Shown in pieces: positions 1-36,974 of a DNA stretch of 37,389 nucleotides. Position numbers and translations under genes: made by a program. The stretch spans positions 1 to 37,389 of the forward strand of contig UYFQ01000105.1 of the NCBI GenBank assembly GCA_900617105.1, read 5' to 3'. Position 1 is the stretch's first letter, and each line of letters begins with the position of its first letter. The notes beneath the pieces were generated by a model, which searched no databases, was not told the DNA's origin, and saw only the letters and a list, made by a program, of their open reading frames with translations. The DNA comes from Hydrurus foetidus (lineage: Eukaryota).

Positions 1-174
1 TCGGTTCGGATCGAGGACGATCCGAGCCATCCGATTCATGACTTGCCTATCTCTGTGTTTATCTGTAAGCTAACCACATCTCTTTAGCCAATAGCACCAG
101 CACAACAGCTGCCTTCCTCTTGCCCTCGCGCCCCGTCCCATCAGACCCACCGCAGAGCCCATAGTTAGGCCACA
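1..174 (+). repeat. 5' LTR of E1 (partial)
   Basis: Matches 7196-7369 with 2 substitutions (positions 14 and 152); ends ...GGCCACA. Confidence 0.96.
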
Positions 175-723
175 ATACTAGTATTTGGACCAACTTGGTG
201 CTCTTTTTAGAGACCAGTTCCAAAAAGCGTTCCAAAAACATCGCCACGACCCGTAAAACGGCGTGCAAACAAGCTAGTAACTTGGAAACAAGTGAAAACA
301 ACGTCGAAAGACACTACAAAGGCTACGTCTAATCGACAGCCTCTGAAACGCTTTCGTTAAAAAGCTCGAGTCGTCGAGATTTTCGCGACAAAATCGTGAC
401 GGCTTCAAAACTCGAAGCCTAACGAAGCAAGTAGCTCTGAGTCGAGCAAAAGCAAGTCCCATCGTTATAGAAACGAAAGCTGGCCAAAACGCCCGCAGTT
501 TAGCTCCTTGAAAGGTTCAAAACGCCAGGCAACTTTTCGAGCGATTTCCGACGAAATCGCGCGAAAGTAAACCACCAACAGCTCCATCAGTTAAAGGATC
601 CTACGATCCCACGACATCATAGCTGCGGGACCACATCCTCAGCTCCATAGAGCGCCGCGTCCGAGTTCCGTCGCTGTCCAAGACCCCAAGATCAAGACGT
701 TTCCAACTCAAGACAAAAGTCCC

Positions 724-3226
724 ATGACAAGGGCCCAAATAAAGAAGAAAGCGGCTGCTAACGCAGCCGCCTCTGCTTCTTCAGCTCCAAGCGCTTCGCG
801 CAGTGCTCCTCTCACTGAGAAGGAAAGCACAAAGCGGAGCAGGCCCTTGTAAAGCAAAACATCGAGAAATCGATACAGGCTCTGGCCAAAGAAGCAATAC
901 ATGTTTCGGCTACCCCAACTCGTCTTGAGGACGAACAAATTTCTTCCAAAGCGTCATAGCAGCAACAAAAGAAATGCAAGCAGCTCACAAACTAGAGCAA
1001 GCACAAATAGCTGCTGCACAAGCTGCTGCCGACGCTTTAGAACCCTCAAACGACGAGCTCCTCGGGTTGGCACCCGAGGAAGCCGAGGGCGAGACAGACT
1101 CTCCCCTCGATACCCGCGGGTACTTAAAAAGAGGGGGAGAAATCTCGATACTCCCTCCGCGACTGCAACAGATCGGTGCAGAGGACGATCTGTTCGAACC
1201 ATCAGTCGACGCCAAAGTCAAAACAAAAAAGGCATCCGACACCGGCAAGGCCGAGGCCGACGCCGAGTCAGATCCGGAGGCTGACGCCGACGGTGACGAC
1301 AATGCCAACAACAACGACGACGACAAACCCCCCGACGAGTCCGACGACGACAACGACAGTAACGTCGACGACGTTAACGACACGGGAGGCGATGGTGGCA
1401 ACCCCGACAGCTCCTCCGACGAGTCCGACGCAAGTAGTGGCGACGGGGACGACGGAGAGGGTGACGGGGACGACGACGGGACGACAACAGCGACGACGAT
1501 GAGGCGAAAGCTGAAGTCGAAGTCGAAGACGACGAGGAGGTCGAACCCGAAAAGTCTAAGCCCAAGGACAAGAAACCCCTTAAGATAAAACCCCTCGCCA
1601 AGAAAAAGTCCCCAAAGGCGGGTCCCAAACCCGCCCCAAAGGACAAAAAGGTGAAAACCAAAACCGATGCCAAATCCGGTAAAACACACCGCGCGCAAAA
1701 GGCGGAAAACTCGGAAGAGGATTCCCCTCCACAACGCAAAGCGGGTTTGCAAACCTCCATCATCAACATGAAGGAGGCGTACTACCTCACTCGAGAAAAA
1801 CTTCTCGACGACGCTGATAAAGCAGCAAGAGCGTTTACGAACAAGCATACCGCCCCGGTATGTTAACCAGTTGGGAAATGCTAATCGAAATGGATGCCAT
1901 CCAAACGATCCGCGACCAGTTGCTTCGATGCAAAAGCGAGACAGGTTACAACACCAAGACTTGTCTCGCCTGGCCAACGGTCGAAGGCAAAACGTTAACG
2001 TTAAAGAACATTGCAAATGATCTTAAAAAGATCTTTTACAAAAACAAGCGTACGTCTTCCCATTTCGACTTCGAAATGAAGTTGAAAAATTGCAAATTCC
2101 GCATCAGCTGGAAAGATCCTTCTGTTGAAGACAGAGCTCTCTGAGTTCCGTGACATCCTACTCGGATTCTGGACGTCATACGACAATATCGATGCCGACA
2201 TGCAAAATGATATCTGTAAGGCCTTCTACAAGAAGCTGCCAAAGAACAACAAGTTTACAGACAATTTCATGGCAAAGACAAAACGTAAGACGAAAAAGAC
2301 CGGGAAAGATACCATCTTCAAAATGCTCACGCGTCTTGTCGTCATGCTGGGCGAAGCACGCCAGATGATCAAAGACGCGGAGGACATGGGAGGTCTCGAC
2401 TTCGTCTTCGAGTCAAAGCTCACGCCAACCGACCAAGACGACGTTGAGGTCGCACCTCACCGTGACAGCCACTCGGCTAACGCCTACAAGGCAATCCCAA
2501 AACGTCAGGTGGACCCTGAGTCGTCCGGCCTCAGCCGGGCGACCAACTTCTGTCACACCTGTGGCAAAAAGGGACACAACCGTTACGAATGCCAAAACCA
2601 CATGAACCCTCACTGCAACCGTAGCCATCGCACTTGGTCGCAGTCTGAGGAGGCAAAGGACTTCAAACGGATTGGTCACGAATTCTTCGTACCAAATGTG
2701 TACATCAACGGGGAACTTACCCGGGACACCAACAACCCCGGGGCAGCTACCTACGTGTACCATCTGACGATGTTGAGAACGACTTCTCTCCTCCAGGGAG
2801 AGCCCAAGACGACCGTCCGACCAAGAAACAAAAGCTGGCCACCAACAACAACACCAAGTACAACAAGTACAAGAGCAACCAGACTCAACCGGATAGGGAC
2901 AACGATCGTTCTAACACGAACAAGTTGAGCTCCAACTACAAGGGAAAAAGTAAGTCACAACTTGCTAACCCAAGTACGGACATAATCGAGTACGCTCGAG
3001 AATTACCGTCAATGAAACAACTTCTATCAGCTGTATTAACTGAAAACATAGATGATTTCTTACAAGTTCACATATCTCTACCACAGATCCGATCGCCAAT
3101 TTCAAACCAAGTCGCGACCGACCTGACGATCGCAGGGACAACTCGCACCAGGCGGAGAGCAAGGAGGGGGACAGACATAAGTCTTCCTCTTCTTCCTCCT
3201 CCTCCAACCAATACGTGCCAAACTAG
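724..3226 (+). CDS. gag: E1 Gag: acidic/Lys-rich N-terminus, CCHC knuckle CHTCGKKGHNRYEC; predicted spliced form joins 724-2949 to 3087-3226
   Basis: ATG 724. ORF pieces 974-1588, 1651-1866, 1860-2144 and 2125-2928 join via small indels in simple runs and align with E2 Gag. Zinc knuckle at ~2551-2592. Confidence 0.8.
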
Positions 3227-6200
3227 AGGCATGGAAGCCTTGGCCCAAATCGACACTGGATGTCAAGTCGGGGACGTCATCAACGGCAGAGTCCTTCGGG
3301 GCCTCCGTGGCGAAAACCACTTGAGGAATTCCGACTCACCCATGTGGATGTGTAGTGGCTTAAATAATCAATGTGTAGAATCTACAAATGTGCTTGATAT
3401 TGTTGTATCATTTAATAAAGACGATTTAAAACACACTTTTAGTCTTCCTGTCCGAATAGCTCCGGAGTCAAAAGTCGACCTAATCTTAGGATTACAGACT
3501 ATAAAAAATTTAAATTTAGTAAAAATAATACCAGAGTTCTTCCAGAACCTCGATAAAATAACGCCTAGTGCGATACCAGCTTCACCGCTGAAGAAACAAA
3601 GGGTGTCGTTCTCGGCTGAGGACGATGCACAAGTACCACACACGGTACTCATAGACACCGAACTACCCCCCGAGGTAATATCAGCCGAATCAGCGTCAGC
3701 AGACACAATCCAAACGGAAATTCCTTTACCGTTACTAACGGAAAAGGACACTGTCCAAAAGGAAAGTAAAATAGCTGACCCAGGGTCCCCACTACCTCCT
3801 GGCATTTTTGTCATGGAGGGCATAAATCCCTCGACTACAGACTTTCCCCGGCAGGATAACCTGGTAGCTCGAGGTGCTTGTACACACAAGACTTGCAACT
3901 CTTCATGCGGGTGTTCTACAAGCTCAGCGACGGCAGTTGCTCAGCTTGCTTCCGATGAGTCCATACTACGCACCACCAATTTGACAACACTAGTGTTGCC
4001 ACTTCCGCGTCAGAATGGATCTGGTGTAAAAACCAAAAGGCGTAAGAGAGTAGCTACTCTTACACCCTCATCCATAACACCAACCGAAACGCGTGGTATT
4101 GCGGCAGCTCTACTTAGGGAGGAAGACGAAGACCTCCCTGAGGTTCGGTCTTTCCGTGATAAGGAAGGGATCGACTACAAGTCGAAGGATACCTTCGCTC
4201 CTTTTCAAGACAATCCAAACAACGATTCGATGTACTTAATTGATTTAATACATATCGATGGTACACCAACTGAGATTGCCGAAATTAAAGCGATTTGCAT
4301 AAAACACAAATCGCTTTTCAAAAACGAGCTGGGTCCAGAACCCGCTCGAATTCCTCCTTTTGATTTCAAAAAGGTAAACATACCTCAATGGAAACACTTC
4401 CGTAATCGGGGTGCTCCCAGAGTCGCTTCAACGATGCGACAAGAGGAAATCAGGAAACAAATCGTAGCAATGCTCAAAAAGGGAATAATAAAACCATCAG
4501 ATGCCTCATATTACTCCCAAGTAATACTTGCAAATAAACCAGACGGTTCACTCCGATTCTGCATAGATTACAGGAACCTCAATGAGGCAACCGAATCTGC
4601 AAGTTGGCCGATCCCAAATATAAAACAAATGTTATACAGACTTGGCGCGCAACGGCCAAACGTATTCGGCGTAATCGACCTTACGGCCGGATACCACCAA
4701 GCCCCAATAACACTGGCGGCACAAGTATTTACCGCATTTATAACATTTATGGGTATATACCAATTCACACGACTACCATTCGGTCCCAAGATGGCCCCAT
4801 CATACTTTCAACAGATGATGGCGTCAATAGTACTACTTGGCCTTATATACAGCATCTGTGAAGTCTATTTAGACGACATCATCATATATGCTGATGGACA
4901 CATCCAATTCTGTGAACGTTTAGAAACATTGTTTCAACGTCTAGAAGATAAAAACATTTCACTCAAAGCTGCAAAGCTAAGACTTAACGTCAAAGTAGTT
5001 GAATATGTTGGTAGACAAATATCTAAGGAAGGTATATCAATGAGCTCCAAAAAGATAACGGGTGTGACTGACTTTCCGATGCCAAGAAAGACAACTGAAC
5101 TACGTTCGTTCCTCGGTCTCACCAATTACTTTAGGGATCATGTACCAAATCACTCAAATGTGGTAGCACCGCTACACAAAATGATAGATCACGCCGCCAA
5201 AAAGCAAACATTGCTTGTCTGGACAGACGAAGCGGCCGACGCGTTTACGTTAGTCAAAGATCTTATCTCCAAGAGTCCCTTATTATATTTCATCGACGAT
5301 GTAGCACCTATTACCCTCATGACAGATGCGTCTGACTACGGTATAGGTGGTTATTTATATCAAGAAGTCGACGGAGTCAAACAACTCGTCGCTCTCGTAA
5401 GCAAATCTCTTACCAAGACCCAGTTGAAATGGTCCGTAATACAAAAGAGGCTTACGCCCTTTACTTTTGCTGTGACTATCTCGACGCCCTGCTACGAGAT
5501 CGTAAGTTTACTATCCTGACCGATCACAAAAATCTTACTTTCCTGCACAAGGATAAAAATGAGATGGTCGGAAGATGGCGCTGTGCGCTACAGGAATTAG
5601 ATTTTACGATAGGGTATATCCCTGGGAAAAATAATGAAGTCGCTGACGCAATGTCACGCCTATGTAAAACAAGATGCCGAAACACATCATAACAGCAATC
5701 CTTACTTGCAAACCGCTTGCAGCGGAAATATATGCATACTTAATGCGTGTCCACAACTCTACCGTTGGGCACGGAGGATTCAATCGCACTTTGCGAAACC
5801 TAAAAAATAGGGAAAGTATGGGAAGGCATGAGACACGATATAAGAGCATACATTAAACAATGCCCGTGTTGCCAAAAGATGTCTGCTGACAAACAAAAAC
5901 CCGTCACCCATCGTTTCACAACATCAACATATGCACCTATGGAATGCATAAACATAGACTTTATTGGTCCATTCCCGGATAAAGGATACATCCTTGTTAT
6001 GGTAGACACCTTCACAAGGTTTGTCGAACTATCAGCCACAACTGATAATACTGCAAAATCAGCCGTAACAGGCCTAATAGAACACATCGGTCGCTACGGA
6101 GCTCCCAAATTCCTGCGATCCGATAACGGTCCCCATTTCGTAAACAAAATCCTCGAGGAATTTGTAAAAGTTGCCGGTACAACACACAACCTTATTCTAC

Positions 6201-7015
6201 CATACTCTTCGCAAGAAAACTCGATAGTAGAGCGTATGAATAAGGAAATTAACCGACACATCACGGCATTTACATTTGACCGTGCAACTACGGAAAACTA
6301 CCGAGAAATTTTACCATTCGTACAACGAATTATAAATACGACATTCAACGTACGGACACAGTCAACAGCAGCAAAGCTTATATACGGCAATGCTATTGAC
6401 CTTGATGCCAACATCCTTCTCCCTCGAGATGAGATAAACTTAGACATGGCTCATGTCACCCATTCTACTGAGAAAATTATGCAGATGCAAGATGAACTCA
6501 TCAGAATCACTGCTGAACTACTCAAAGAAGCGGACGAGAAACGAAAAGCAGGCGGTTCCACCGACTACACAACGTTCGAAATCGACTCGTTGGTACTGGT
6601 TACCCACCGCACATCAAAACCAACACGCATGCACACTTTATGGAAAGGTCCCATGCAAGTGGTCGCTAACGATCTCGACGAGTATACACTACTCGATCTT
6701 ATTACCAACCGCGAAAAAAGATACCATGTATCAAATATTAAACAATTTGAGTTTGACCCCACAAAGGTCAACCCAACCGATATCGCCCGACGAGATTATC
6801 TCGAGTTCTTTATCGAAGATATCCTAGCAATGGAAGGAAACATCCGAGTCGTGGGAACATTAAAGTTTCACGTCAAGTGGCTAAATTATCCCCACGACAG
6901 AAACACTTGGGAACCGTGGAAAAACATGCGTGACGCTGAAAAAGTCCACGAGTTCTTAATTGCTAAAAACCTAAAACACTTGATTCCAAGTAAATTCGCT
7001 GAAAATTATCGTTAA
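2925..7015 (+). CDS. pol: E1 Pol (protease, RT, RNase H, integrase, chromodomain), in frame with corrected Gag; 3 apparent frameshifts at ~5443, ~5667, ~5803
   Basis: IDTG, RFCIDYRNLN, LPFG, YLDD, TDASDYGIGG, TDHKNL, H..GH...CPCCQ, IDFIGP, SDNG, VERMN, VKWLNY..NTWEP motifs. Confidence 0.95.
2950..3086 (+). other. Predicted 137-nt GT-AG intron at the E1 gag/pol junction
   Basis: A|GTAAGT donor, CTACCACAG|AT acceptor; removal shifts frame into a 46-codon exon ending TAG 3224-3226; same layout in E2. Confidence 0.75.
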
Positions 7016-7152
7016 CCGATATACAGTATGAAACATGAAGGTTTATAAAAAAAAAAAAAAAACTCAATGTTCAACGTGAAATAGTAGTTATATGTTAGTA
7101 TTTAAGCATAGATAAATTGTTCATGAAAAATTTAGTACACCCTTTTTTTTTC

Positions 7153-7164
7153 GAGAGAGGGAGG
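7153..7164 (+). other. Polypurine tract of E1
   Basis: GAGAGAGGGAGG 4 nt upstream of the TG of the 3' LTR. Confidence 0.85.
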
Positions 7165-7168
7165 CCAT

Positions 7169-7369
7169 TGTGACCCGCACCGTACCGGCGTACGTTCGGT
7201 TCGGATCGGGGACGATCCGAGCCATCCGATTCATGACTTGCCTATCTCTGTGTTTATCTGTAAGCTAACCACATCTCTTTAGCCAATAGCACCAGCACAA
7301 CAGCTGCCTTCCTCTTGCCCTCGCGCCCCGTCCCATCAGACCCACCACAGAGCCCATAGTTAGGCCACA
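7169..7369 (+). repeat. 3' LTR of E1 (201 bp)
   Basis: TGTGACC...GGCCACA termini; repeat of 1-174. Confidence 0.96.
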
Positions 7370-7370
7370 G

Positions 7371-9425
7371 CGTACACTCATAAATATGAATGAGGTATTC
7401 ATGCTCAACGCCGAGAAACTCTTGACAGATGGTCCCGCTACCATCCAAGCATTCCACGATCAAGCCAACCTGCCCAATTTCAAAACACATTGGAAGCAGA
7501 TCATTACCGAAAATGCTCTAGTTCCTATTAGGTTCAGACTAAATGGAGTGAAGGAGGTCCTTGGGTACACCCAACCAGAATGTTCCACTTGGCCAGTCAT
7601 TTGCGGTGTCACCCTATCGATCCGACAAATCGCGAAAGACTTGACAGCCTGCTTCTCACAAGCAACAAGGACGTCCGACACGACCTATGATTGCAACGAG
7701 AAGATCAGAGCATACAAGTTTGCGTACGACTTCGCTGATGCATACGTCGAAGAGGCATCGATCACTCGGTTTGAGGAGATCATCAGTCTGTACTACCCAG
7801 ACCGAACCGACCTCACACCTGAGCGCGAGAACGAAATCTGCAAAGCATTTTACAAAAAGCTTCCAGCAGAAAACGCACTCGGGATGAAATTCTTGGAGGC
7901 CACAAAGACGTCCATAAAAAAGACCAAAAGAGACACCATCCAAGACATGTACATGCGACTCAGCGACCACCTCAACATCGCACGTCAATGCGTCAACGAC
8001 GCAGCGGAGCTGGGGAACAGCAGATACCGCTGGACCACTCCAGACAGCCCAACTACCGAGGAAGCAAAAAGACAACGAAGCTCGTTGTCTAATGCATCAT
8101 ACTCCTCCAACCCGCACGCAGTGGGATTCCATCCAGAGGAGGACACACGCGCGCCACCATACAAGGCGATCGCAAAGCGTCAGCCAGAGGTACCACGTTA
8201 CCCCGGCCTTGACCGCAACACCAAGCTGTGCCACACCTGTGGACGCAGCGGACACAACCGTTACAATTGCCGCTTCCACATGAACGAGCATTGCAACAAC
8301 TCGCACAAAATGTGGTCCGAATCCCTCATGGGGATCGAATGGAAACGGCTCGGTCACAAATATTTTGTAATCGATGCACATCATCCATCGGGAGGAGTAT
8401 CTCGTGAGAGAAAACAAATCCACGTCTCGACAAACTTCGAATTCCTCACGGAGGAAGAGGACATTGACATGGGTAACACCCAACAAAAGTCAAACCCTCG
8501 GCAAGGCACCAGTGCACCACCATACAGCAAGGTTAAAAAGCCAGCGTACGACGACAGACGAAGAAGTGAGTTTTCAACACCACCTGTCAGTGTCGTAATT
8601 TTACCGCGTATCGACTTACCTCGAACACGCACCTTACTTTCAGCAATACTTCCTGAAAAAGTAAATGATTACTTACAGGTCAATATTTCTCTCCGACAGA
8701 TCAGTATGGCCCAAGACAAGACGACCGCCCTCGCAAAGACGACCGCGCACAAGCAGACACCGACAACCGCGACCGCGACCGCCAACGCAACGAGCGAGAG
8801 GCCTTCGCGCGCGACAAGGCGAAATACAAGGAAGGATCCGCCAACAGCTCCAACAAGCCCTACTCCTCAAAGTAGAGGCAAGGATGCACTGGCCCAGATC
8901 GATACGGGGTGCGAAGTCGGTGACGTCATTAACCGTAGAGTCCTTGAGGGCCAACGGGGCGAACACCGCTTACGTGACTCCGATTCACCCATGTGGATTT
9001 GTTCTGGTTTAGATAATAAGTGTATTGAATCCAAATCTGTGCTTGATATTGTTGTATCATTTAAGAAAGATTCTTTAAAATACACCTTTTCTCTTCCGGT
9101 CCGCATCGCAGAGGACTCCGAAATAGACTTAATTATAGTTATAAATACCATAAAAAATCTAAATTTAGTTAAAATTATGCCCGAACTTTTCGGTCATAAA
9201 AATCATACTGATCCGTGGACCCGTATAGAAAATTCGATGGTACTAACCACGAATAATCTGCCGGACACAATTCCATCCACCGCGGTCCAAGAATCTCCAG
9301 TCAATAATGACTTGGACGAGGCAAAACCCTCCAACACAGACAACCTGAGGCAAGGTGACATGGTGTCTGGAGGTGCTTGTACACACAAGAATTGCACATC
9401 GCCATATGGGTGTTCGCAGATTTGA
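7371..9425 (+). CDS. gag: E2 Gag-protease in one continuous frame (5'-truncated)
   Basis: 679-aa ORF with CHTCGRSGHNRYNC knuckle and IDTG at 8901; collinear with E1. Confidence 0.9.
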   Translation, partial: RTLINMNEVFMLNAEKLLTDGPATIQAFHDQANLPNFKTHWKQIITENALVPIRFRLNGVKEVLGYTQPECSTWPVICGVTLSIRQIAKDLTACFSQATRTSDTTYDCNEKIRAYKFAYDFADAYVEEASITRFEEIISLYYPDRTDLTPERENEICKAFYKKLPAENALGMKFLEATKTSIKKTKRDTIQDMYMRLSDHLNIARQCVNDAAELGNSRYRWTTPDSPTTEEAKRQRSSLSNASYSSNPHAVGFHPEEDTRAPPYKAIAKRQPEVPRYPGLDRNTKLCHTCGRSGHNRYNCRFHMNEHCNNSHKMWSESLMGIEWKRLGHKYFVIDAHHPSGGVSRERKQIHVSTNFEFLTEEEDIDMGNTQQKSNPRQGTSAPPYSKVKKPAYDDRRRSEFSTPPVSVVILPRIDLPRTRTLLSAILPEKVNDYLQVNISLRQISMAQDKTTALAKTTAHKQTPTTATATANATSERPSRATRRNTRKDPPTAPTSPTPQSRGKDALAQIDTGCEVGDVINRRVLEGQRGEHRLRDSDSPMWICSGLDNKCIESKSVLDIVVSFKKDSLKYTFSLPVRIAEDSEIDLIIVINTIKNLNLVKIMPELFGHKNHTDPWTRIENSMVLTTNNLPDTIPSTAVQESPVNNDLDEAKPSNTDNLRQGDMVSGGACTHKNCTSPYGCSQI
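8566..8699 (+). other. Predicted 134-nt GT-AG intron at the E2 gag/pol junction
   Basis: A|GTGAGT donor, TTTCTCTCCGACAG|AT acceptor; spliced frame runs 58 codons to TAG 8873-8875. Confidence 0.78.
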
Positions 9426-12400
9426 GTAGCGGCCGCTACCGACCCTGTTCAAGACAGGTCCGTCTTGCAAGTATGTGAGAAGTCAACAACCCACTTGACT
9501 TCTCCTCGACAAGATGGTTTAGAGCTCACGCTCGACGGAGAAAAGGAAGTAGCTATCCAAATCTCCCCTTCCATAACTCCACCCCAAACATATGGCTTTG
9601 TCGCGGCTCTACTTAGGGAGAAGGAATATCTCCCTGAGGCTCAACCTTTCGGTCCGGAAGAAATTGACTACAAGTCAAAGGATACATTCGCTCCTTTCAG
9701 GCTTTCCAAGCATACATCCACGGATATCATAGACCTCATTCACATTGAAGGTACTCATGATGAAATCGCACGGATTCGAGCAATATGTGTAAAACACATA
9801 GTCCTGTTCAAAAATGAACTTGGACCAGAACCGGCAAGAATACCACCATTTGATCTTCCCGTAATGGAGAAACAATGGAAGGTGCCCAAAAACAGACATG
9901 CATCACGCATACAGTCTACAAAAAGACAAACGGTTATACGCGAGCTAGTAACAACTATGCTTAAAAGCGGTATAATAGTAAAGTCAAATGCATCGCATTA
10001 TTCTCAAGTAATCCTGGCACCCAAACCGGATGGTACCTTCCGATTTTGCATTGAATACCGTGGACTAAACGAAGCTACGGAATCTGCAAGTTGGCCAATA
10101 CCAAATATAAGACTCATGTTAGGACGTCTAGGGGCGGCAAAAGCAGATACCTTTGGTGTGATTGACCTCACAGCAGGCTACCACCAGGCACCGATCACAA
10201 TGAGCACAAGAATTTATACAGCCTTCATTACACTCATGGGCATATATCACTTCACAAGACTTCCGTTTGGACCTAAACGGGCACCATCATATTTCCAGGA
10301 AATGATGGCGTAAATAGTCCTCATAAGTCTTATTTACTTTATTTGTGAGGTGTACCTTGACGACATCATAGTGTACGCAACAGGACACTTACAATTCTGT
10401 CAACGATTGGAAACAATATTTCAATGTTTAGAAGAGAAAAATATTTCACTCAAAGCAGCTAAGTTAAAACTTGGTATGAAAAAAGTGGAATATGTGGGTA
10501 AAGAAATATCAAAGGAAGGTATAACTATGAGTTCCACAAAGATAAAAGGCGTGACCGACTTTCCGATGCCAAGAAAGACGACAGAACTGAGGTCGTTTCT
10601 CGGACTCACGAATTATTTTAGGGATCATGTACCGAACCACTCAAACGTAGTCGCTCCTTTACAAAAGATGATCCTGCACGCATCCAAAAAGCAAACATTG
10701 CTAATATGGACTGACGAAGCAGCCGATGCATTCTATATGATTAAGCAACGAATTGCAGAGAGTCCCTTGCTATATTTCATACACGATACAGCCCCAATAA
10801 CCTTAATGACTGATGCGTCAGATTACGGTATTGGAGGTTACTTGTATCAGGAAGTCGACGAGAAGAAACAACTCGTCGCTCTCGTAAGTAAGTCTCTTAC
10901 CAAGACACAACTGAAGTGGTCAACAATACAAAAAGAAGCCTTCGCGCTCTATTATTGTTGTACTTACCTCGACGCACTACTACGAGATCGTAAATTTACA
11001 ATTCTCACGGACCATAAAAATCTTACCTTTATTGAAAAAGACAAGAATGAAATGGTTGGCAGATGGCGAGTCGCCCTGCAGGAATTGGATTATACGATAG
11101 GCTACGTACCAGGTAGAGAAAACGACATTGCAGACGCGATGTCACGCCTATGTTTAAACAGAATGGAAAAGAAATCATGTTAAACAATTAACGACAAATG
11201 AGCAATATGAACTCATTGGTAGTTGTCACAACGCAACAGTCGGACATGGTGGTGTACAACGTACGTTACGGAACTTAAAAACAAAGAAGAAAGTGTGGCC
11301 GGGCATGAAAGAAGCAGTAAAACTTTCATCAAAAATTGCCCTTGTTGCCAAAAGATGTCTGCGGTAAAAGTACCAGTCAACTCTTACACTTATACTACTT
11401 CAACATACAAACCAATGGAATGTCTCAACATAGATTTCATTGGACCATTTCCTGATAAAGGATACATTCTAGTCATGATTGACACATTTACACGATTCGT
11501 CGAACTATATGCAACAAAAGATGCTACCGCTAAGGCGGCATGCACAGCATTAGTGGAACACGTCGGTAGATACGGATCTCCAAGATTCCTTAGATCTGAC
11601 AACGGTCCTCACTTTGCCAACCACGTTATTGAAGAATTTACAAAACTCGCAGGCACAGTCCACGAGAAAATTCTCGCCTATTCTTCGGAACACAATTCAA
11701 TTGTGAAAAGAATGAATAAGGAAGTTAATAGGCATATTCGAGCATATACGTATGACAGATCTACCATTGTAACAGAAATCTATCAAGAAATTCTACCATT
11801 TGTTCAACGTATATTAAATACAACAACTAATGATAGAACAAAAATTTCACCGGCACAAATCCTCTATGGAAATGCCATTGATATGGATGAAGGAATTTTA
11901 ATTCCAAGAGGAGAAATTAACCTCATCCCCCAAAATATCACGATTTTATCTACAAATATGATAAAGATCCAAAGTAATCTTATTAGAATTGCAGCAAGAC
12001 TCCTTAAAATATCTGATGACGAACACAATAGAGTGGTGGAGCAACCGGGAATTCCGGTTCCAGGTTTTGAGAATTTCCGGATTATTTTGCATGATCGGAA
12101 CCGTGGTGGAGCACGTGAATTCCGGAATTTCGGATCCATGGAACCCCCAAGAAACCGGTGGGTTCGACTTCTCCCTAGTGCATGTGGGTAGGGAAGTATG
12201 AAATCGACTCAAAATCGACTATCGATGTAATCTTTTCACTAGATTTTAGATAGTTACGAGGTTCATTTAGTTTATCGTAGTAGCCATCATTTTTTCTTTT
12301 TTGCAGTTAAGTAAAAGTTCCTAATGCCGTCATTTTAGGCCTTCATTATTAAGTGATGATTTCTCCTATCAACCCCCAAGTATATCACCTTCTCAGCAGC

Positions 12401-13809
12401 TGAATGGCCCTCGGGCTCTCAAAACATTTTTGCAATCATATGGCATCTTCTTTTGCGTACATTCTTACCGCTGATCTCGAATTCTAAGAAATTTCGACTC
12501 CTGCTGGGAAGGTTTCAGAGACAGCGACCTTTTGGGACAGCTCGGGCAAGGCCTGCCGACAGTGTTCGGCTGCTGCAGCACGGCAGTCGATCTCAAAACT
12601 ACACACCTTTTTAAAATAAGAAAAGCTGTGCTTGAAGATTGTTTTCTTATATCTACAGGTAGACTACAAAAGTGATATCTAACCGTAAAAATGTATAGCA
12701 GGTAATTTGAGCGACCGCGAGAAGATTGGCACGCCGCCAGTCGCCGCAAGGCACACAGTTATCTTTGGTGCTCTTGATGACCTTGTGGGACACGAGCCGG
12801 AGCGATCTGAAGCTTTCGGCTTGGTCTGACGTTCGGGAACGTGGAAGCTTTCACCTGCAGTCCTTTATCAGCGTCCTGAGACTCGTTTGGGATCCAAAAA
12901 GAAGCGCCTAGCGCAATTTCCTGATTTGGTAGAGTCACAGCCGAAGAGCGTTGGCTCGGGAACGTTTGTTCCCACAAAAAGACATCCATTTTGAGGAGTG
13001 CGATGAAAATCACAGAGAAATCGGTGCTCAAGGCACTGTTGGATAAATTTCAAATGGCATGCATTGCCTGCGTCCGATGTTGTTGACTCCCGCAAAAAAT
13101 TCTGAGCGTGATGACCATTTTTGTGGTCCTTTGAGTGTGTATTCCTACTGTTATGAGAGCGGTACTGTAAGTTTAAACAGCAGCAGCTTCATTTTAGGGG
13201 GCGAATTGATCCGGAAGTTTGACTTCTGGATTGGAGTATTTTTGAGTGGGACATCCGGATCAATCCAGAAGTCAACTTCCGGATCAATCCGGATTTACCC
13301 CAAAAAAAGCGGGACTTCAGGATTGCTCCACCACTCTGATGAAAAACAAAACCCGGATATAATACATTTCGAGGTAGGCTCATATGTACTCGTTACTCAA
13401 CGCACACAGCCAGAGACACGCATGCACACATTGTGGCGCGGTCCTCTTCGAGTTCTAAGCAATAAGAAAGGAGAATATACGCTACTCAATCTTATTACTC
13501 TTAAAAATGTTAAATACCACATGTCACAATTAAAAACTTTCTTATTTAATCCACTGCACACTGATCCAACAGATGTAGCACGTCGAGATTATTTAGGACT
13601 CTTCATCGGAGAAATCATAGATATGAGGGGAAATATTTCATCTTATGGAGCATTAGAATTTGAGGTCAAATGGCTCAATTATCCCTCAGAGAGTAATACC
13701 TGGGAACCGTGGTGAAGTCTAAGAAAAACAGACAAACTACACAATTTTCTTATTAAGTAAGAATTTACGTCACCTAATTCCAAGAGAATTCAGGTTAGAC
13801 TATGTCTAA
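9426..13809 (+). pseudogene. pol: E2 pol (RT, RNase H, integrase, chromodomain) with in-frame stops, frameshifts and a TE insertion
   Basis: Stops at 9423, 10311 and 13713; YLDD 10353; integrase split by 12029-13338; chromodomain EVKWLNYPSESNTWEPW at ~13660-13712. Confidence 0.92.
12029..13338. mobile_element. Non-autonomous TIR DNA transposon (~1.31 kb) inserted in the E2 integrase
   Basis: Perfect 15-bp inverted termini AGAGTGGTGGAGCAA (12030-12044) / TTGCTCCACCACTCT (13323-13337). Subterminal TCCGGA-type repeats at both ends. Removal restores integrase ...DDEHN|EKQNPD... collinear with E1. Confidence 0.88.
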
Positions 13810-16182: not shown

Positions 16183-16375
16183 CGAATTCCTGCCTCCTTC
16201 AAAACACACTTGAATACATAACAAAATGCATAATAAAATTATTATGTTCTGCTGCTACCATCTTCTGTTCTACGCAGCTTTTCGAAAAAAATAACAGTAA
16301 CTTTTCAGTGACTGCTATGAGGAGCTAATTAGATAACTGGCGTTTTTCACAAGGTGAAGGTGTTATTGGGTAATC

Positions 16376-19300
16376 ATGATGCCCATGCCTGCGGCCATGT
16401 CGGTATCAACTGATAGTGTCCAATCAGCCTTGCGGATTTCTGAAGCAGTAGCAGCTGATTCTGGCCAAGCTAGTAGAAAGTTCATGATCTCAGTTGGGTT
16501 GATAGATTTCAAGGACTTAGCTGCATTTTGCACACGTGCATGCACCGGTAACACGGAGACTTCAGTTGACAGAACATTTTGGTTCTCATGGATTATCCTC
16601 GAGAAAACGTTCCAATCTGACGAATTTACAGCAGGAACAGAACCTCAGAAAATTAGAGACATCATAAGAGTACGCTGCTCAGAAGATGCCATGATGAAAA
16701 TAGCCTGTGATGAGGCAAGTCTACGGATATTTTTGTGCACACAGGGGAACGTTATGGCTGCTGTAAGCATACCTTTGCTCCAACCAACAGTCGTGAAAGA
16801 AGCAGCAAATTTTCCTCTATCGATGGCAGCGTGGCACGATCTGGAAAGATCACTAGGTCCAAATGAAACTCGATTGAATAAGCCAGCCATTAAAATAGGC
16901 GTCACTATCAGCTATGATCAGGAAGGAACTGCAGGCCATGTTATCTCTACCAAAGCAGCACCAACAGTTCCTAGGAGATTCTCATCGTCTCCTCTGCTGG
17001 TGGAGTATAATGCATTACAGGATTCAAGTGAACATAGATCTGACCCTGAAATCTTGATGGCTGTTGATAACTGTGCAGTTGTTTCTTTTTCAGAGAACAT
17101 TGACGGTAAAAAGAATCTTGCTGGCAGAAGAGTCCGCAGATCAAGGAATAGAAACCAAGATGAATTATGTGAGACAAGCAGCGAGGATGCGGGTGAATCT
17201 TACGATGAGACAGACAACGATGGATTGAACAGTTCAGAAGAAGATGATTACACAAGGCACTACCGACTGAGTGTAGAAGTGAAGAGTATAGGGGGCTTAC
17301 GAAGAGCTGCTAACGCTTCGATTCACTTCACCTATCCTTTCTTCGGAGCTGGGGGTTCAGTGCGCACTCACCCTGTATGGCTGCCAGCGAATTCAGAGGG
17401 AAGAGTGGATGGCGCTGTGGCTTCCTATGACTGCTGTATGTCACGGAACAGAATTCGGGATCTTCTTGCAGAACACCCCTTGAAGATATCAGCAGTTTCG
17501 AGAACACATCTGGGAAGCGCAAATATAGGAGAGGTTTCTGTCGATTTGTTTGGACTGCTAGAGAGTAAGCCCCATTCTTATCGCTGTGCAATGTCTAGCA
17601 AAGCATTTAAGACAACAGAGGAATACATCTCTCACAGGCAGTCCCTCCTAGCCCTCCGCTCTCTAGGTCAAATAGACAGGGTCCCTGCTAAAGACCCCAT
17701 TACGGTGTGGGCCGATGACAGCTTTCTGCCTCTTACTGTAGACAAAAGGAAGAGCTCCGACATGGCATTTTTAGGGGGTCGTCTCCGAGTTGTGGTGATC
17801 ATAGAAGAGATCGGAATAGTGGGTGCGCAGATCGCCACCTCAGTGAAGCCGGGTTACAAGATGCATAACGGTGCCCTCTATGTGGTGAAAGACTCCCAGC
17901 CTGAGATTGAAATGCTTCCCAGTGCAGCACCAAGTATGGATGAGACGGTTGAGATGCCACCCCTGCCTTCAGATCGTGTTGGTCTGACTGAAAGTGAGAG
18001 GGTGCTGCTTGACAAACTGCGTGGTGAATGGGAGACCTTCAGAATGGCGTCAGAAGTGCAGTGGCGCAATAGTTTGAGGGACAGGGAAGCTCAGATGAGG
18101 AGCAAGCTAGAAGCCGAAACATCTCGTAGTCTAGCGGACAGAGCAGATGATTTGAGGAGAGCTCAGGAGGAGGCTGGCAGACTTGAAGTGCGTCTTCGAG
18201 GCGCAATAGAGGAGGCAGAAAGACAGAGAAACCAACTAAAGTTAAGAGAAGAACAAATGCAAATGAATCTTGCTCAAAGAACGTCTGAGTTACAATTACT
18301 GCAAAGGCGAGTTAAGGATGAAGCGAAGGCAAGGATAGATGCTGAAGTGTTGAAATCTAGTGGTCTCCTATCACAAGTCAATTCTCAGAAACAGCAAATA
18401 GAGAAATACGAGAAGAGAGTCAAGGATGTTGAAAAAGAATTTGAGTCCTTCAGGGCATATTCTAGAGGCACACCTGAGTCCGTACTTAGAGAGGAAGTTG
18501 CACGCGTACGTGCTCAGCTAGGGGAGAGCAGAGCGGAGGTGGAGAGAGAAAGAAGAATTAAAAGTGAAGCCGACTTAGAGAAAGAGCATTTCAGAGCACA
18601 AATGCACCGTCTTGCTATAGCGCTGAAAAGGGAGAGGGAAAGAAGCTCTGCGTCAGCCCGACAAGATCTCGATCAGCTGCGACTGGAGTTCCTAGCAAGA
18701 GAAGAAAGGTGCGACTCCATGCATTCTATCAATGAACTTACATACTGTACGCGCATCTCACACTCATGCCTGTTGGCTGATTGCATTCTTTCTATCACTG
18801 CACTGCAAACTACAGATATGTACTAGATGGGGATAGAGAGGAGTTGAGGAATATTCGACATGAACTGGCGAGCCTACGCACTCAGTCACACGGACAAGCG
18901 AACACTGACAGACCTCAGGGATCTTGCCCATCCCCGCCCCCAAACTATGGGCCCGCACAGATCTTCCAACAGTCGCAGCAACGTCAGCCGTCATCGGTGT
19001 ATCAGACAAGCAATCCCATATCATCAGATTATTCACGTGATTCTTATTCAGATCAGAACATACAGCCGCCGTCACAGTCACAGTCGCGTGCATCAGCACC
19101 ATCTGACGTACGACACGTTCAAGAAAGGGGCAGTCGCTCTGATTCCTTTGAAGTCATCAACAGACATCATGATGTTTCTGATGGGGACAGGGATAGAAGC
19201 AGTGAAACAGTCCCATCGAATGTCCCAACTTCTTCTTCCTCTTCTTCCTCTCCATCTTACCATCTCCGCAGCTCTCCCTATGGGATAGAGGGCCCATCAC

Positions 19301-19754
19301 AAATGAAGAGGAGCAGTGTCGGTCCAGGATCTCCCCCCATAGGGACGGAAATAGGGGGGAAGAGGAGGAGGAGGAGGAGGAGGGCGAGTCCCCTCGTCCC
19401 CTCATACTCAGAGCACAAGCAGCGCCCATTCATCAGACACCCTCTAGCCAGCAGAACAGTACTAAATACACTGCACCTGTCTCCACCCCCTCCTCCCCCT
19501 CCCCTTCACTCTCCACCGCATACAGTCCAACAGCACCGGGGATGCGGGGGTACGCGAAGAGTATATCGCAGTCACTGGATGGAACGGCACGATTTCTGAA
19601 GCAAGAAATCCAGAGCCTTTTAGACACGGACATGTACGAAGATGGCGATCCCGTTATCGAAGCTTTGAGAAGGCAGCTAGAGCAAGCAGAGAGTGAATGC
19701 GGCAGACAGTCTACAGTCGCACCGACAGCTGGGAGGCAGTCAGATAGGCAGTGA
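16376..19754 (+). CDS. CEP120: Centrosomal protein CEP120 homolog (intron 18709-18815; apparent 1-nt deletion in G run ~19354-19359)
   Basis: C2-like domain with YPFFG motif; coiled coil with EKEFESF..PES.L and L.QLRL.FLA.EE; C-terminal LL.T.MY...D.VI..L.RQ. Confidence 0.88.
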
Positions 19755-20376
19755 GAATCTAACCGTTTATGCCGCACACCCTTCAGGGTGCCTTTCAAGT
19801 TCACGCTTTCGGCTCAACCTCATCCAATCATCCTGGAGAAATCTTCATTTGCACCTGATATTACCTTTCAAGTACATTTTATTACACCATTACTGGTGAC
19901 CGTTCCTTCATGATGTATAATTTGTATTCTGTATTCTTTCTGTACGTTCACAGATCCTCCCTAGAAATTTCATATTAAAAACCAAGAACAAGAAAAGAAC
20001 AACCTTGTCAGTGGTTCCCCACCCTTCAGTCAGCGATTCGATCTGTTTCTTTCTCAACTTTTCATTTATTTTATGCTGTCATAATAGGACCCTATAGCAA
20101 GAGTCAGTTGGTGACAACAGTTGCAAATTCGACATGTAAATAATTTGGCTGAAAATACCGTCAAATGCCGTTTAATGTTTATTTAAGGAAAGAAAGAAAA
20201 TGGGAAATAGAAATCCTCACAAATTGAAATCATTCACCCCAGCTATCAAAAGTCAGCAATAGCGCGCAAATCAAATGTTTCACGGAACCTTGACTGTTAC
20301 GCCATATCCCGTTGAATGCAGTACTGGTTCAGAGATAAACAAAGCAAATCATGGGAGACAGATATAGAGGTATGCC

Positions 20377-22518
20377 TCAAGATTCCATCCTCTGCATTTT
20401 CCTTGATCGGCTGCCAGGACAGCGGGAGGCCAGCAAATCGTCTGAATCAGCAGCAAATTTCAATTTTTGTCGACTTCTATTACAGCTCTCAGTAGGGTTC
20501 TTCGAATCACCTTTTTCTTCTGAAGTAACATAAGAATCAGGCTTGCAGTTTTTTTTCAAATTTATTTCCTTCTTTATCTTGACAGTGGACGACGGTGACG
20601 ATTCCTTTTTGTTTTCAATTTGTTGAAGTCCATTTTCTTTTTCTTTTGAAATTTTGACATATCCCGAGCATTCCTTTTCAATTTTAATTTCAATTTTTGA
20701 TGTGTGCTCAATCTCCGATTTACTTTCAGTTGTTGCGCATTTTTCTACTTTGATAATAGAGAGTGCGGCGATTAAACTTGCAGGTGTATCTGACGCAATG
20801 CTGCTTTCTCTTGTGCTAGAGTTCGTGTCAATCGCAATGTGGGAATTAGAACTAGAGGAAGAGGTAACAGTACCAACAGAGGTAACATTCTTTTGTTCTT
20901 GATGTTCCTCACTTTTAATCTCGATTTTGATGTCATTTTTGATATCGTCTGTAATATCATTTATATTTTCATTTTTAATCAATGGATTGGCTTTGTCAAT
21001 ATTGAGGTCCCTCACCCGTTGTCTTTTCGTTTCCTCCTCTTTCACCTTCATTAGTTTTACCCGTTTATTATTTTCAAGTCTTATTAAACGATCCAATCTA
21101 ATCTTTTCTTTTTCTTTATCTTCCCCCTGAAGATTTGCCTTGAGCAACTTCAACAATACATCAAATGTGGGTAATTCAGAATGCCAGCATTCCGCCTCTC
21201 GGACAGATAGAGATTTCATGATTTTCTCTTTCATGTCTCTTGGGATTACTAGACTGGCGCTATGCAGCAGTGATGTATATGCTCTCTTCACTGTAGTGAG
21301 CGTTGCCAATGCAGTGTCAATAGTTATCTGAATGTCCACATCACCTTTTTCAGGACGAAATAAATCAATTTGAGGTCTTTTACTGCCAGAGCTATTCGCA
21401 GTGTTTAAAGCAATTTTCTTGTTGAAGATGGACCGAATAGCGCCTATCATTATTATTGATGCTGCTGCTGATGCCTGTGGCGACTGACCATCTAAAATAC
21501 CCTCTTCTGATGCATTAAAACACATGTCCTGCATAATTAAAAAGATTTCTGTCAGATAACTCAGTGACGTAAAGTGGAATCGACTATATTTCTATCGATG
21601 ATGATGAAATCAATAATAATGTAAGGTGGTGAATCATACCTTGGCGTATTGTATCGTCACTGGATCAGTCATGCGTATCAAAGGATTGCAAACTATTCTG
21701 CTCACTAAATCTTGAGCTGCTACTCTTCCGGTGACGATTTGAAGATCTCGAGCCAGAATGGTTTGTATTCTGCTTATCGTAGACACGTCTAAATTTGTCA
21801 CTCTAGATATTTCTTGTAATGTCCTAGGATATCCTTCAAGTCTACAAGCTAGAGATATTACAGCTGCTGCTAGATGTTCTATTCTTTTCGCTTGCGAAGA
21901 ATTTTCCATTATTGCTCTCCCGCATAAATGGTACGCACAATCCTACATGCAATATCGTAAGTCGTAAGTAACATTGTGTTTTTAAGGGTGCTAGCACCTG
22001 ACGCATGGTTCAAAGTAGAAGATAAATCATCACACTTCGAGATCGATAAAAAGTGGAAGATATGACATAATGATACGAGACAAGGACAAATTGTAGAGAA
22101 ATTTAAAGCATGGCAAAAAAATTACCAGTATGTTCCTAGTAAGATGCAGGATAGATCCAATGTTTTTGATCACTTCAGTGGCTTTTCTAGTTTTCAGCTC
22201 TCTTTGATCGGTTGCCATCATTTGAGTCTTCGCGAGCGCAACTCGCGCCGCTTCACTGACTCCGCCAATAAATTCGGTAGTCGAACCATATTTGTCGACG
22301 GTGCAAGAAGATCTAGCCGCTGATCCATTATTGACTCTATCATCCTCACTAAACTCTCTCCATTCAGCACCCTCATCGATAATTCTGCCAACTTGAATTT
22401 CTCCACAGCTTCTGCAAACTACATCGCCGGCTGTTGTATCAGTAACGACATCGACTCCAAAGCATCGCTTGCATGGCTCATTGAAGGGATCATTCATCAT
22501 TCTCATTGATAGTATCAC
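20377..22518 (-). CDS. TFIIB-family transcription factor with long charged C-terminal extension (exons ~22518-22126, 21942-21640, 21528-20377)
   Basis: Zn ribbon CKRC..GDVVCRSCG, B-reader EWREF, cyclin repeats ACRLEGYPRTLQEI and GQSPQASAAASI; phase-compatible GT-AG introns. Confidence 0.88.
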
Positions 22519-23041
22519 ATCACAGAATCCAATTCAAATTGCTAATCGATTCGATTGGTGTCCAAACAGAAGCTTTGGTCAAAAATGCCATATATCCCGC
22601 TGACCGCCTCGACTTTGGCTGCTGTCTTGAGGAACAGATGATCAGGAATACTTAATGGTAATTAAACTTCTCACGACCTGGGGAGACATTTTGTGAAGTA
22701 ACAGTTTATTCAGCGAAGAATCATAACACAATTATTTACAAAGCAAAAAAATGTTGATTTCGTGTTGCAAACATTTGATAAACATTTGACACAAATAATA
22801 GCCGTACTAATTCGATGCGCTTTGGTCCGTGGCTCTTGGACCTTGTTTCTGGAATCCTCAGTGAGCAGCTACAACTATGGCACATAATCTATGAACAATC
22901 TAGAACTTTAATCTCGGCTAAGTGATGTTTGGTGTGATGTGAGTGAGTTGCGTTACATCAAGTTTGTCATGCCAGTCAGATTTCAACAATGTATAAAATC
23001 CACTGCTCTCTCTCTCTTGCTATTACGATGACTCCTCATCG

Positions 23042-24590: not shown

Positions 24591-25300
24591 TGGTCGGGCT
24601 TCTCAAGTCAGAGAACCCTCTGATAAACTTGGCCGGGGCAACTGCCGGTTGCATGCAGATTCTCCTGCAAAAGTTGCGCAACGCTGCCAAGGGATACGAG
24701 GTGGAGGGTGGAGGAGCAGGCAATGCTTCGCCTTCACTGTATACAGCAGCAAAACAAACGGAGGATAGAAGCACGTGCGACAGAGATAAAAGTGAGTGAG
24801 TTGAAGCCGGTTTTGTCAGAACAACACTTTCGTAATTTTCACGGATAACATCGTACGGAAACCGGAAACTGGCACTTCGCGCGTTCGTCACAGCTCTAGG
24901 TCACACACTGAAGGCTGAAGCAGCTAGCTGTATAATGAATGCCCAAATGGCACTTAAAACTCGTCTCATCGATAGATGAAGTTGTTGCATGGTATCTCAC
25001 CATGATTTCTGGCCGACTCTTCGAAAGAAGGCAATATCCAATCCTCAGAAACGGGCTTATTCACGACCGCAAGTGCAGGTGGTCCATAGTGTCGCTGTCT
25101 CCTACAAAACTCTGATTGCTCGTGACATCAGACGCAGGCTGCTGGCTACTCCCTGTCATTGATCAGTCTCGCAAGGTGTCAGGCTCCTGATGTGATTAAC
25201 TCGCAGTAAAATGGGTCTTTTGAAACCATCATTACATTTGAGCTACTGTTGAAATCCTCCATAAATTTACACTATCTTCATCTAATCAGGTGGAATAAAA

Positions 25301-34600: not shown

Positions 34601-35400
34601 TACGATACCACTAGGTGTTTCCACTCTAGCGTCTGTTTTGGCACTGTCTACCATTTCACATAAATGTGCTAGGGTGTACGTTCGCAGACGTAGATCACCA
34701 CCATGAGTCGATACATGGCCACAACTGTCACACATAGTTTCAGCCCCAGAGGTGCTTGGTTGACTAGAGCATCCGACATCAAAACAGCGAGCTACTCTGT
34801 TAAAGTCTGTTTTGTGGAGTGGCATGGTACTATGACCAGAATAAGGACGTGCCAATTCACCCTTCTTGCCCTCACGTATGGACGGAATGCCCTCCGCAGC
34901 TAATAAAACTTCCATTCTTTTGAATGAGTTTATCACATTAGGCATCCCGATTTCAAAGGGGGTCAAAGTGAAGAAATCATAACTCCCAAAACTCAAAGTG
35001 AAGAAGAGTTGGTCGACCCAAAATTAAATCGATGGTGTTAGGAATAATCCTCACTGTTAAAAATATCGTTTTAATTAACAGGGTGTTCGTGACAAAAATC
35101 ATGCCTATATCGATTACTTAGTCTCTAAACATATAGTGAGTGGTTTATAAGACGTGTAAAGAAACTCATCTCCGTGACTGTTATGTACAAAAGTTTGACT
35201 AATAAAGTCGCCGGGGAGGCTCCCGGTATCCAGGAGAGTCTTCGCCAGAACCCTTTGGGGCCTATGGCTTTGGGGGTAGTTGGTGGGGTACGTATGGGTT
35301 GTGACCCTGACCCCATTCCTGACTCTGCTTAGCTGATTTACAAAAATCCAAGCAGACAAAAAATTAGAATCCATGTCTATTTTAGTCAGGGATACTGCTA
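31699..35400 (-). pseudogene. pol: E3 pol (PR, RT, RNase H, integrase, chromodomain), frameshifted
   Basis: ORF pieces 35114-35374, 33884-34324, 33640-33930, 32881-33633 and 31699-32874 carry the canonical motifs. Confidence 0.92.
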
Positions 35401-36974
35401 GGATAGCAGATTGGTGCAGAGGATGACCTTGTTTTTTGTTTCTGCGGTTCTCTGCGTGTTGGGCATTTGTAGCGGGGTCGTTCGCTTGAACTGATTCTTG
35501 GGTGGGTATAGCATACCCACTCTGAATTCAGACTGAGGTCTGTTCAGGTGTTGGGTCTCGTACCCTGGAAGTTTGACTCCCGCATCATAGGCTTGGAACC
35601 CATGGTGAGGCCACAGGTGACCCATCGTGGAGTCCTTCCATCGCAGATGGAGTTCATTGTTGGCGTCTGCAAAGAACAGAGCCGGACAGTCTCGGATCTC
35701 ATGTCCGGGATGTCCACACGAGCGACATGGTGGAGGTGGCGGTTGGGGCCGCATCTGGACCAGAGGGTCATTTGATGTTCTCCTTGCCAAGGGAGCGGTA
35801 GCTTGCATCGTTTGCATAGGTTGAGCAGGGGGAGGGAGAGGCAGTGCTGCTAGTACTGATTTAGCATAGACAGCAGCAGAGAATGATCTCTGTTCAGGTA
35901 TGATCATCTGTTGTGCTTTTGGTACCTGGGTTACTCGCTCATCATAGCGGCTCTCTCTCGAAGAGTAAGAGTGTCTCCCAACGGGGTCACCGCAGTTAGC
36001 GACTTCTTTGAGAAGCTTACGTACGTGTCCGATGCACGTTCCAAAACGGATGAATGCAGACTCCTAGGTCTCATTCGCAATGGGTTTACCATTGTTACCC
36101 TTCGCCCTGAAATAATCATTTTTTAGTTGACTATCAGGTTTGAGTTTTTTCTCAATCGTTACTATCAGTGCAGCATGCTGCTCCGGAGTGATTGGTTGGG
36201 TGTTCTCGTAGGTCTCATTCGTGAAAGAAAAATTAATTTCAATTGACGCGAAGTTCTCTACGAGGGTCCGACCCACATCATTTTTGTCGCCAAAATATTT
36301 GGATATGATGGTCGCAGCCTTTTTGACTGTAACATGGTTATACCATGTGTAGTAAACTCTGGGTCGCTTGCAAAAGCGTATTGTATGACATAGGTCGTGG
36401 GGTCGACGACGACCTGGTGAGTAAAAAAGTTGTCATGCCATTGATTGGCTTGATTTTGAAACTTCGCAGCTTGTTCTCCCGTAATGTTCGGGGTTTCAAT
36501 GATAAACGGCGGTTCTGGTAAAATGCTCTGTTTAACGGTTCTGATAACGGTAATGCTCTGTTTAAAAGCACTTGCAACGTGCTCCATATTGCACTGAGGA
36601 GTACGGAGTGGAACATCGACTACGATGGGAACGAGGGGTGACTACCGCACAGTCACCACACACGGTGACTGTACTTTCGCCAGCTTCGCCACGCATCGAT
36701 GCCTGTTGACACAATTCAGGTAAGGTCAAGGGCCTATCGGAGTTACTAGTGCTACTAGAGCTACTAGACGAGTTACTCGGGCTCGATTTACTCGGAGAGT
36801 TCTCGATATCACTCTCTTCAGAGTAATCGTAATTGTCTCGTGGTATTTCTCCACCATCTTCCAAGTCAAGTAGCTCATGACGGTGTGAGTTGGAAGGAAC
36901 GGCGTCAATTGACATCCGGTCTCATACGGAGTCTCTGCTAAATAATCAGCAGGTAAATTTGACATCATCTCCAA
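35398..36974 (-). pseudogene. gag: E3 gag, fragmented
   Basis: CCHC knuckle in 35398-35907; upstream pieces resemble E1/E2 Gag (F..QAN, KKL...L). Confidence 0.75.

Follow-up and report, generated by a model that had tools for sequence, protein, structure and literature searches.

A predicted intron and an overprinted -1-frame Gag tail in the single Gag-Pol frame of a protist clade of Ty3/gypsy elements

For Copia elements it is established how a single Gag-Pol reading frame can yield much more Gag than Pol, whereas for Ty3/gypsy elements the literature covered here leaves this question open. This question is raised by a contig of Hydrurus foetidus (UYFQ01000105.1; the 37,389 nt analyzed are referred to as the window), in which a Pfam domain search revealed three Ty3/gypsy elements with chromodomain integrases, designated E1, E2, and E3. 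In E2, a putative intron lies shortly upstream of the catalytic DTG of the protease; once it is removed, ribosomes would read on in the -1 frame and stop behind a short tail.

The gag gene of E2 contains the inserted E1 and is broken by the 3' LTR of E1 (boundary 7369/7370), and the 5' part of E2 lies beyond the left end of the window. Since the LTRs of E1 are 99% alike, this insertion is recent. LTRs were placed at about 7169-7369 and from 14023. E3 is located on the minus strand and is a distant relative of the other two. Between the LTRs, the protease is followed by RVT_1, RT_RNaseH, and rve, which is the gag-PR-RT-RH-IN order of Ty3/gypsy elements; the integrase thus follows RT-RH, unlike in Ty1/copia elements, where it precedes RT. 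A chromodomain (PF00385), as found at the integrase C terminus of chromoviruses, was present in all three elements. In an RT tree whose sole outgroups were two unnamed NCBI gypsy proteins, E1 to E3 fell into a clade on its own long branch.

The E2 copy is dead, as judged from pol stops and insertions, and so records its active ancestors. The TGA at 9423 represents decay, and further pol stops occur at 10311 and beyond; the gag-protease part has remained a single open frame, and the same holds for those relatives whose sequence spans the junction. The E2 integrase contains an insertion of ∼1,311 nt (12028-13338) that is missing from other copies, with an inverted repeat near 13200-13310. The frame of E1 is broken at 2759, where other copies have one additional base. 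Losses of 1 or 2 bases in E1 lie behind positions 823, 939, 1480, 1833, 2136, 2759, 5442, 5665, and 5801, are absent from other copies, and reflect either decay or long-read assembly error. At its N terminus, Gag of the E1/E2 family carries a long extension of some 300 low-complexity, acidic and basic residues (window 900-1780; residues 1-320 of the relative P0121). A Cys-rich motif, GAC..K.C...CGC (window 9370-9420), is conserved in the protease-RT spacer of E1, E2, and P0122-P0125 and is possibly a metal-binding site. Host genes between the elements (window 16358-31000) code for a Cep120-like protein, an AlkB-like oxygenase, and an AROM-type protein; two others are presumably a TFIIB-like and an elongation-factor-P-like gene, labels that we assigned from motifs. 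The AROM-type gene (∼27900-30600) has at least four introns, and its nearest named relatives are from Ochromonas danica (48%) and brown algae, which points to a stramenopile and probably chrysophyte-like host.

Features of the three elements and of the predicted splice region (window coordinates)
Feature	Position	Strand	Remarks
E1	1-7369	+	LTRs 99% alike
E2	7370 to about 14240	+	holds E1 within gag gene
E2 gag-protease part of single Gag-Pol frame	7370..9425	+	frame open 7290-9425; relative P0121 continuous
E2 Gag CCHC zinc knuckle	8229..8270	+	
E2 predicted splice donor GTGAGT	8566..8571	+	GAA/GTGAGT, phase 1, in Ser AGT codon
E2 predicted retained intron	8566..8699	+	134 nt, T-rich, coding in Pol frame
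E2 predicted first beta-strand of protease, YLQVNISL	8670..8693	+	would double as branch-point and pyrimidine-tract region
E2 second in-phase CAG	8677..8679	+	E2-family-specific
E2 predicted splice acceptor CAG	8697..8699	+	Gln codon, phase 0
E2 dual-coding stretch (-1-frame Gag tail and TAG)	8700..8875	+	58 codons, TAG 8873-8875
E2 protease catalytic DTG	8901..8909	+	
E2 AT-rich island in protease coding sequence	9000..9250	+	candidate early poly(A) signal for Gag RNA
E1 intron counterpart	2950..3086	+	137 nt, phase 1
E1 -1-frame tail and TAG	3087..3226	+	46 codons, TAG 3224, 25 nt before DTG
E3 intron counterpart	35333..35427	-	95 nt, donor decayed to GTCATC
E3 -1-frame tail and TAG	35262..35332	-	23 codons

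A preliminary description of this DNA had proposed the E2 donor with its phase, the acceptor, the intron length, the tail, and its stop, as well as the same plan in E1; all of these coordinates were correct. In E2, the TAG is part of the sequence TAGAGGC and precedes the DTG codons (8901) by 25 nt. The 3n+2 length of the intron is not separate evidence, because any phase-1 donor combined with a phase-0 acceptor gives this length as long as the Pol frame is open. The T fraction was 0.31 in the E2 intron versus 0.09 and 0.04 in its flanks, and the four introns of the AROM-type host gene (124-162 nt, T fraction 0.31-0.34) resembled it in size and T content. The in-phase CAG at 8677-8679, which had been suggested as an alternative acceptor, was not conserved: E1 has CAA, and no other representative of the clade described below has Gln at that codon. 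It is probably too near the branch region to matter.

E3 follows this plan as well (95 nt, 23 codons), which the preliminary description had not noted. Where E3 has its decayed donor, its intact relative L082 has GTAATC, a better donor, within one open frame. An A-rich run in E3 that we considered as a slippery site was rejected, since L082 has a single open frame there. A short stretch upstream of the donor is missing from E3 and present in L082 (window 35260-35530, minus strand; L082:300-630). L082 sits in a bacterial genome bin, as do other matches, and these are probably eukaryotic contamination of the bins.

Conservation was followed through relatives retrieved by an RT scan (87 loci fetched; 79 from metagenomes and 8 from the genome collection). 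A quick tree gave a core clade of 37 rows including E1 to E3 (SH-aLRT 100), with L040 and L049 as a sister pair. Because low complexity prevented an ordinary protein alignment from defining the donor column, each locus was anchored by a protein column only, the Leu of a conserved protease strand; the first AG downstream was taken as acceptor and the best U1-matching GT upstream as donor, scored with a simple U1-match rule made for this analysis. The junction was intact in 31 loci (29 core and 2 sister), reduced to 23 representatives with RT identities of 42-92%. Omitted from the 31 were L008 (upstream frame broken; without a donor, with the tail kept), L020 and L037 (both too near the start of their contigs; acceptor and tail kept in the former, donor and acceptor in the latter), L017 (a permuted copy like L016, plan kept), E3 (broken and replaced by L082), loci without a protease in the RT frame or without an RT motif, and outer-clade loci, which were scored apart as 20 representatives. 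The clade is large: more than 1,000 protease clusters at 50% identity match its profile.

The full plan (donor in phase 1, AG in phase 0, stop ahead of the catalytic Asp) was found in all 31 intact-junction loci and all 23 representatives. Among the latter, the intron measured 86-161 nt, the stop fell 13-73 nt before the catalytic Asp, and the acceptor was CAG in 21 cases and AAG in 2. The selection on splice signals, open -1 tail, and stop that had been proposed from E1 and E2 thus extends well beyond these two elements. No donor, acceptor, or stop variant was listed among E2-family copies (four contig runs, threshold 3%), and no intact relative lacked the GT/AG signals, so that the outcome named as refuting in the preliminary description was not observed.

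Such signals might be by-products of protein constraint, imposed by a basic Gag end, a hydrophobic protease strand, and a low-complexity linker, with no splicing at all and the Gag excess produced by degradation or cleavage of Pol. Part of the pattern can arise in this way. When synonymous codons were shuffled with the protein kept (2,000 rounds), a phase-1 best donor was already obtained in 13.8 of 23 representatives, and the 3' part of the intron encodes a predicted protease strand, which by itself raises the pyrimidine content before the acceptor (null 0.64, observed 0.70). The full plan, in contrast, was reached in only 2.7 ± 1.5 of 23 (maximum 11). Applied at 750 other in-frame anchors, the same rule succeeded in 15% on average and 48% at most, and changed scan windows still returned 22-23 of 23. 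The representatives share ancestry and were chosen by eye from the quick tree, and the windows were set after the data had been seen, so that the nulls overstate independence; the margin over them is large despite this kinship and post hoc choice.

The individual signals pointed in the same direction. Donors scored 6.7 versus 4.3 in 829 control windows, with weak or nonconsensus sites in three representatives (L013 and L024, 4.5; L038, 5.7). The donor residue is Ser, Gly, Cys, or Arg, always encoded as NGT, and the next is Lys, Glu, Asn, Thr, or Asp, yet at the DNA level GT and a following purine are retained; residues therefore change charge or class while the splice motif stays, which argues against protein constraint as its source. 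Acceptor Gln codons were CAG in 21 of 21 cases, compared with a background of 294/781 (38%). Upstream of the acceptor, AG and G were depleted and pyrimidines raised, and branch-point enrichment was weak (CTNAY in 19 of 23 versus 13.1 ± 2.1 expected; YTNAY in 21 versus 19.0). A separate protein search found Gln directly after the protease strand in 27 of 31 proteins (chance, 0.23); these were the proteins with a recognizable strand among 57 long enough, and a few duplicate the 31 loci. We consider an origin of the signals as by-products very unlikely.

The tail provided a second line of evidence. In 11 close pairs, 37 of 74 tail substitutions fell on Pol codon position 2, which is silent in the -1 frame; this likewise speaks against mere protein constraint. 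Synonymous substitutions in the -1 frame made up 31/74 in the tail versus 37/319 in the protease (P = 1e-8; members are shared among some of the 11 pairs). Within the E2 family, 1 of 11 variants in the tail was synonymous in Pol versus 9 of 14 outside (P = 0.012; four contig-held runs). The one change that by itself would create a stop in the tail, at 8827, reads Glu when paired with that at 8825, a linkage suggested by their depths. This substitution pattern indicates that the -1 frame of the tail is under purifying selection, which implies that it is translated into a useful product.

Across the 23 representatives, tails comprised 5-58 residues, all were net basic, and overall they contained 26% Gly and 26% Arg plus Lys. 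Three or more RG pairs occurred in 7 of 23 tails; those of E1 and E2 are of mixed charge and have no RG. The divergence in tail length and sequence noted previously between these two thus holds for the clade, and the composition, which had been thought to be kept, is shared only as net basic character. We see about an even chance that a basic or RG-rich tail helps Gag to bind RNA.

Alternatively, the tail might be reached by -1 ribosomal frameshifting, with the GT and AG motifs incidental. Frameshifting is described as common among Ty3/gypsy elements in the accessible part of PMC3735527, and since the -1 frame is already open over the last 1-82 nt before the acceptor, a slip there is formally possible. 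A slippery heptamer was present in only 2 of 23 representatives, though, and frameshifting would account neither for a phase-1 donor located 86-161 nt upstream nor for Gln codons that are always CAG nor for the T-rich middle. Moreover, a Gag excess would require most ribosomes to slip. This mechanism therefore seems extremely improbable, more so than an origin by protein constraint, and splicing is the reading that we pursue below.

To place intron and tail within the protein, the translation of 8628-9245 was modeled with AlphaFold2 (mean pLDDT, 76.7). The segment at 8670-8693 formed a confident strand, followed by ∼60 low-confidence residues corresponding to the dual-coding stretch and then by the DTG strand. 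In structure comparisons, model residues 9-190 aligned with HIV protease 4-99 and Rous sarcoma virus (RSV) protease 6-124, and the best match to the retropepsin fold was Ddi1 (Z, 11.7; root mean square deviation, 2.7; 102 aligned). The Pol peptide at the 3' end of the intron, reported earlier as conserved, is indeed so, and its identity can now be corrected: it is predicted to be the N-terminal, first beta-strand of the protease, which would place the acceptor within the protease. The tail is predicted to overprint the first hairpin loop, between protease strands 1 and 2. To judge from the model, the peptide is conserved and the loop free in length because strand 1 lies in the intron and the tail in the loop that follows, and this position in a loop would also allow the tail to range from 5 to 58 residues without breaking Pol. 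The new elements here are the model-based identification of the intron peptide as the first protease strand and of the tail as an overprint of the hairpin loop.

Downstream of the active site, third codon positions 100-300 nt after the catalytic Asp were A or T in 80% of cases in the core clade versus 59 ± 2% expected, and in 71% versus 56% in the outer clade. AATAAA or ATTAAA was in modest excess at +99 to +198 (13 versus 5.7 ± 2.1). A second intron in this AT-rich island was considered and rejected, as its best donors scored a background-like 4.7 with mixed positions and phases. Since splicing of Arabidopsis Copia RNAs is coupled to early polyadenylation according to the available text of PMC5580714, the island may be read as an early 3'-end signal that ends the Gag RNA, an interpretation that we favor slightly.

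This island bears on a further possibility, namely, that splicing takes place but serves chiefly to route transcripts into decay, as a switch of the host or a self-limiting one, and is not the main source of Gag. With ∼5 kb of pol behind its stop, the spliced RNA would be targeted for decay if it did not end early, and the island is a candidate for such an early end. On the other hand, the island offers a short 3' untranslated region (UTR), and purifying selection on the tail frame implies a translated, useful product. We therefore give a decay switch very little probability as the main role.

Among the element copies in sequencing-run contigs, neither the joined form nor an intron-less DNA copy was seen. 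None of the runs listed with this stretch is recorded as RNA, and three that are presumably RNA gave neither coverage of the E2 junction nor a joint; one short contig crosses the E1 intron unspliced and may be DNA. These results weigh neither for nor against splicing. Junction-specific scans of metagenome and viral contigs gave no match, nor did an RT scan of viral contigs.

Very probably, then, the Gag:Pol ratio of these elements is set by alternative splicing, with unspliced RNA giving Gag-Pol and the genome and spliced RNA giving Gag with a basic tail. Gag and Pol are carried in one reading frame, and unspliced RNA would serve both as genome and as Gag-Pol message. Removal of the 86- to 161-nt intron would shift translation to the -1 frame, where it would end after the short basic tail and before the protease active site; the spliced form would be the main Gag source, and the AT-rich island might end its RNA early. 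That the junction is spliced in cells is what we infer from sequence. The single frame, phase-1 donor, phase-0 acceptor, host-like size and T content, pre-Asp stop, and -1-frame substitution pattern are directly observed.

A related arrangement was seen in the outer clade (20 representatives, one of them an outgroup). A phase-1 best donor was present in 18 of 20, compared with 39% in control windows, at the same boundary between purine-rich and T-rich sequence; L051 and L073 had none. Acceptors are ill-defined in this group; with the first YAG, a stop would be reached within 15 codons, via the +1 or -1 frame or at the joint, in 14-16 of 17. We infer that the conserved outcome is a Gag that ends before the active site and that the long tail was added later, in some members of the core clade. 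At L066:1640-1850, in-frame splicing would generate the stop codon directly where the two ends are joined, a third way of arriving at this outcome. L085 (2540-2630), a gypsy element that is only distantly related and not part of the clade, also shows a strong phase-1 donor, 65 nt ahead of its catalytic Asp.

If correct, splicing would offer a precise and testable answer to the question of Gag excess for a large protist clade, and it would mean that a plain Gag-Pol annotation of these elements misses the real Gag end. The region would also be an example of compact multiple coding, in which a protease strand coincides with a splice signal and the adjoining protease loop with the Gag tail.

Among known systems, Gag-only RNA made by splicing is described for sunflower shGAG isoforms, with the superfamily unspecified in the text available (PMC7730604), and the accessible part of a 2025 review names only Copia cases (PMC12786077). 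In the portion available of Oberlin et al. (PMC5580714), no such conserved splicing was seen in Arabidopsis Ty3/gypsy elements. A Gag-only splice in Ty3/gypsy elements was not found in the main texts of the open-access literature searched. Ogre, CRR, and env-class elements belong to Ty3/gypsy, and some of their transcripts are processed by the host spliceosome. In Ogre, however, splicing works in the opposite sense and joins Gag-PR to RT; in CRR it takes out rt, and in env-class elements it yields an env RNA. In the accessible parts of PMC3735527, PMC6317226, and PMC7197481, none is described as making Gag only by a frame shift. Foamy virus Gag resembles the tailed Gag proposed here in its Gly/Arg-rich C terminus (GR boxes), for which nucleic acid binding has been proposed, and the Gag:Pol ratio is likewise reached via splicing (available text of PMC7828637). 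The likeness is an analogy only, as foamy viruses splice for Pol and are without zinc knuckles, whereas the present clade keeps the knuckle and would obtain its RG-rich tail from the spliced, shifted frame.

The closest parallels are found in Ty1/copia elements. BARE1 of barley has a 104-nt alternative intron that yields a Gag-only product, with splicing shown in RNA (PMC3735527, as far as accessible). Like the present elements, it has a single Gag-Pol frame; its intron, like the one predicted here, is short, U-rich, and placed at the gag end, and splicing it out changes the frame and terminates translation. Unlike BARE1, the present elements belong to another superfamily and another host kingdom. 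The BARE1 stop lies three residues after Gag, whereas here the acceptor is predicted to fall within the protease and a tail of up to 58 residues is under selection; BARE1 splicing was seen in RNA, whereas that of the present clade is predicted from its genomic signals. In EVD and other Arabidopsis Ty1/copia elements, splicing of shGAG RNAs is coupled to early 3'-end formation (PMC5580714, in part). A conserved donor near the protease and a stop that splicing would create are shared with EVD, and an early 3' end is suggested here by the AT-rich island. Copia introns average about 300 nt, and the EVD intron removes the whole protease, with termination at the start of integrase (accessible text of PMC12786077). 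The splicing plan would work in the manner of BARE1 and EVD, and the element itself is not Copia. The best reading of these sequences is that a strategy known for Copia evolved separately in Ty3/gypsy, a convergence of the two superfamilies. Bolder, and to our minds just short of an even chance, is the proposal that this protist clade independently evolved the full Copia program (U1-type donor, splice-made stop, and early polyadenylation) within protease coding sequence, together with an overprinted RG-rich or basic RNA-binding module, accommodated in the first hairpin loop of the protease and present only on free Gag and never on Gag-Pol, and that single-frame Ty3/gypsy elements in general may use this solution to the Gag:Pol ratio.
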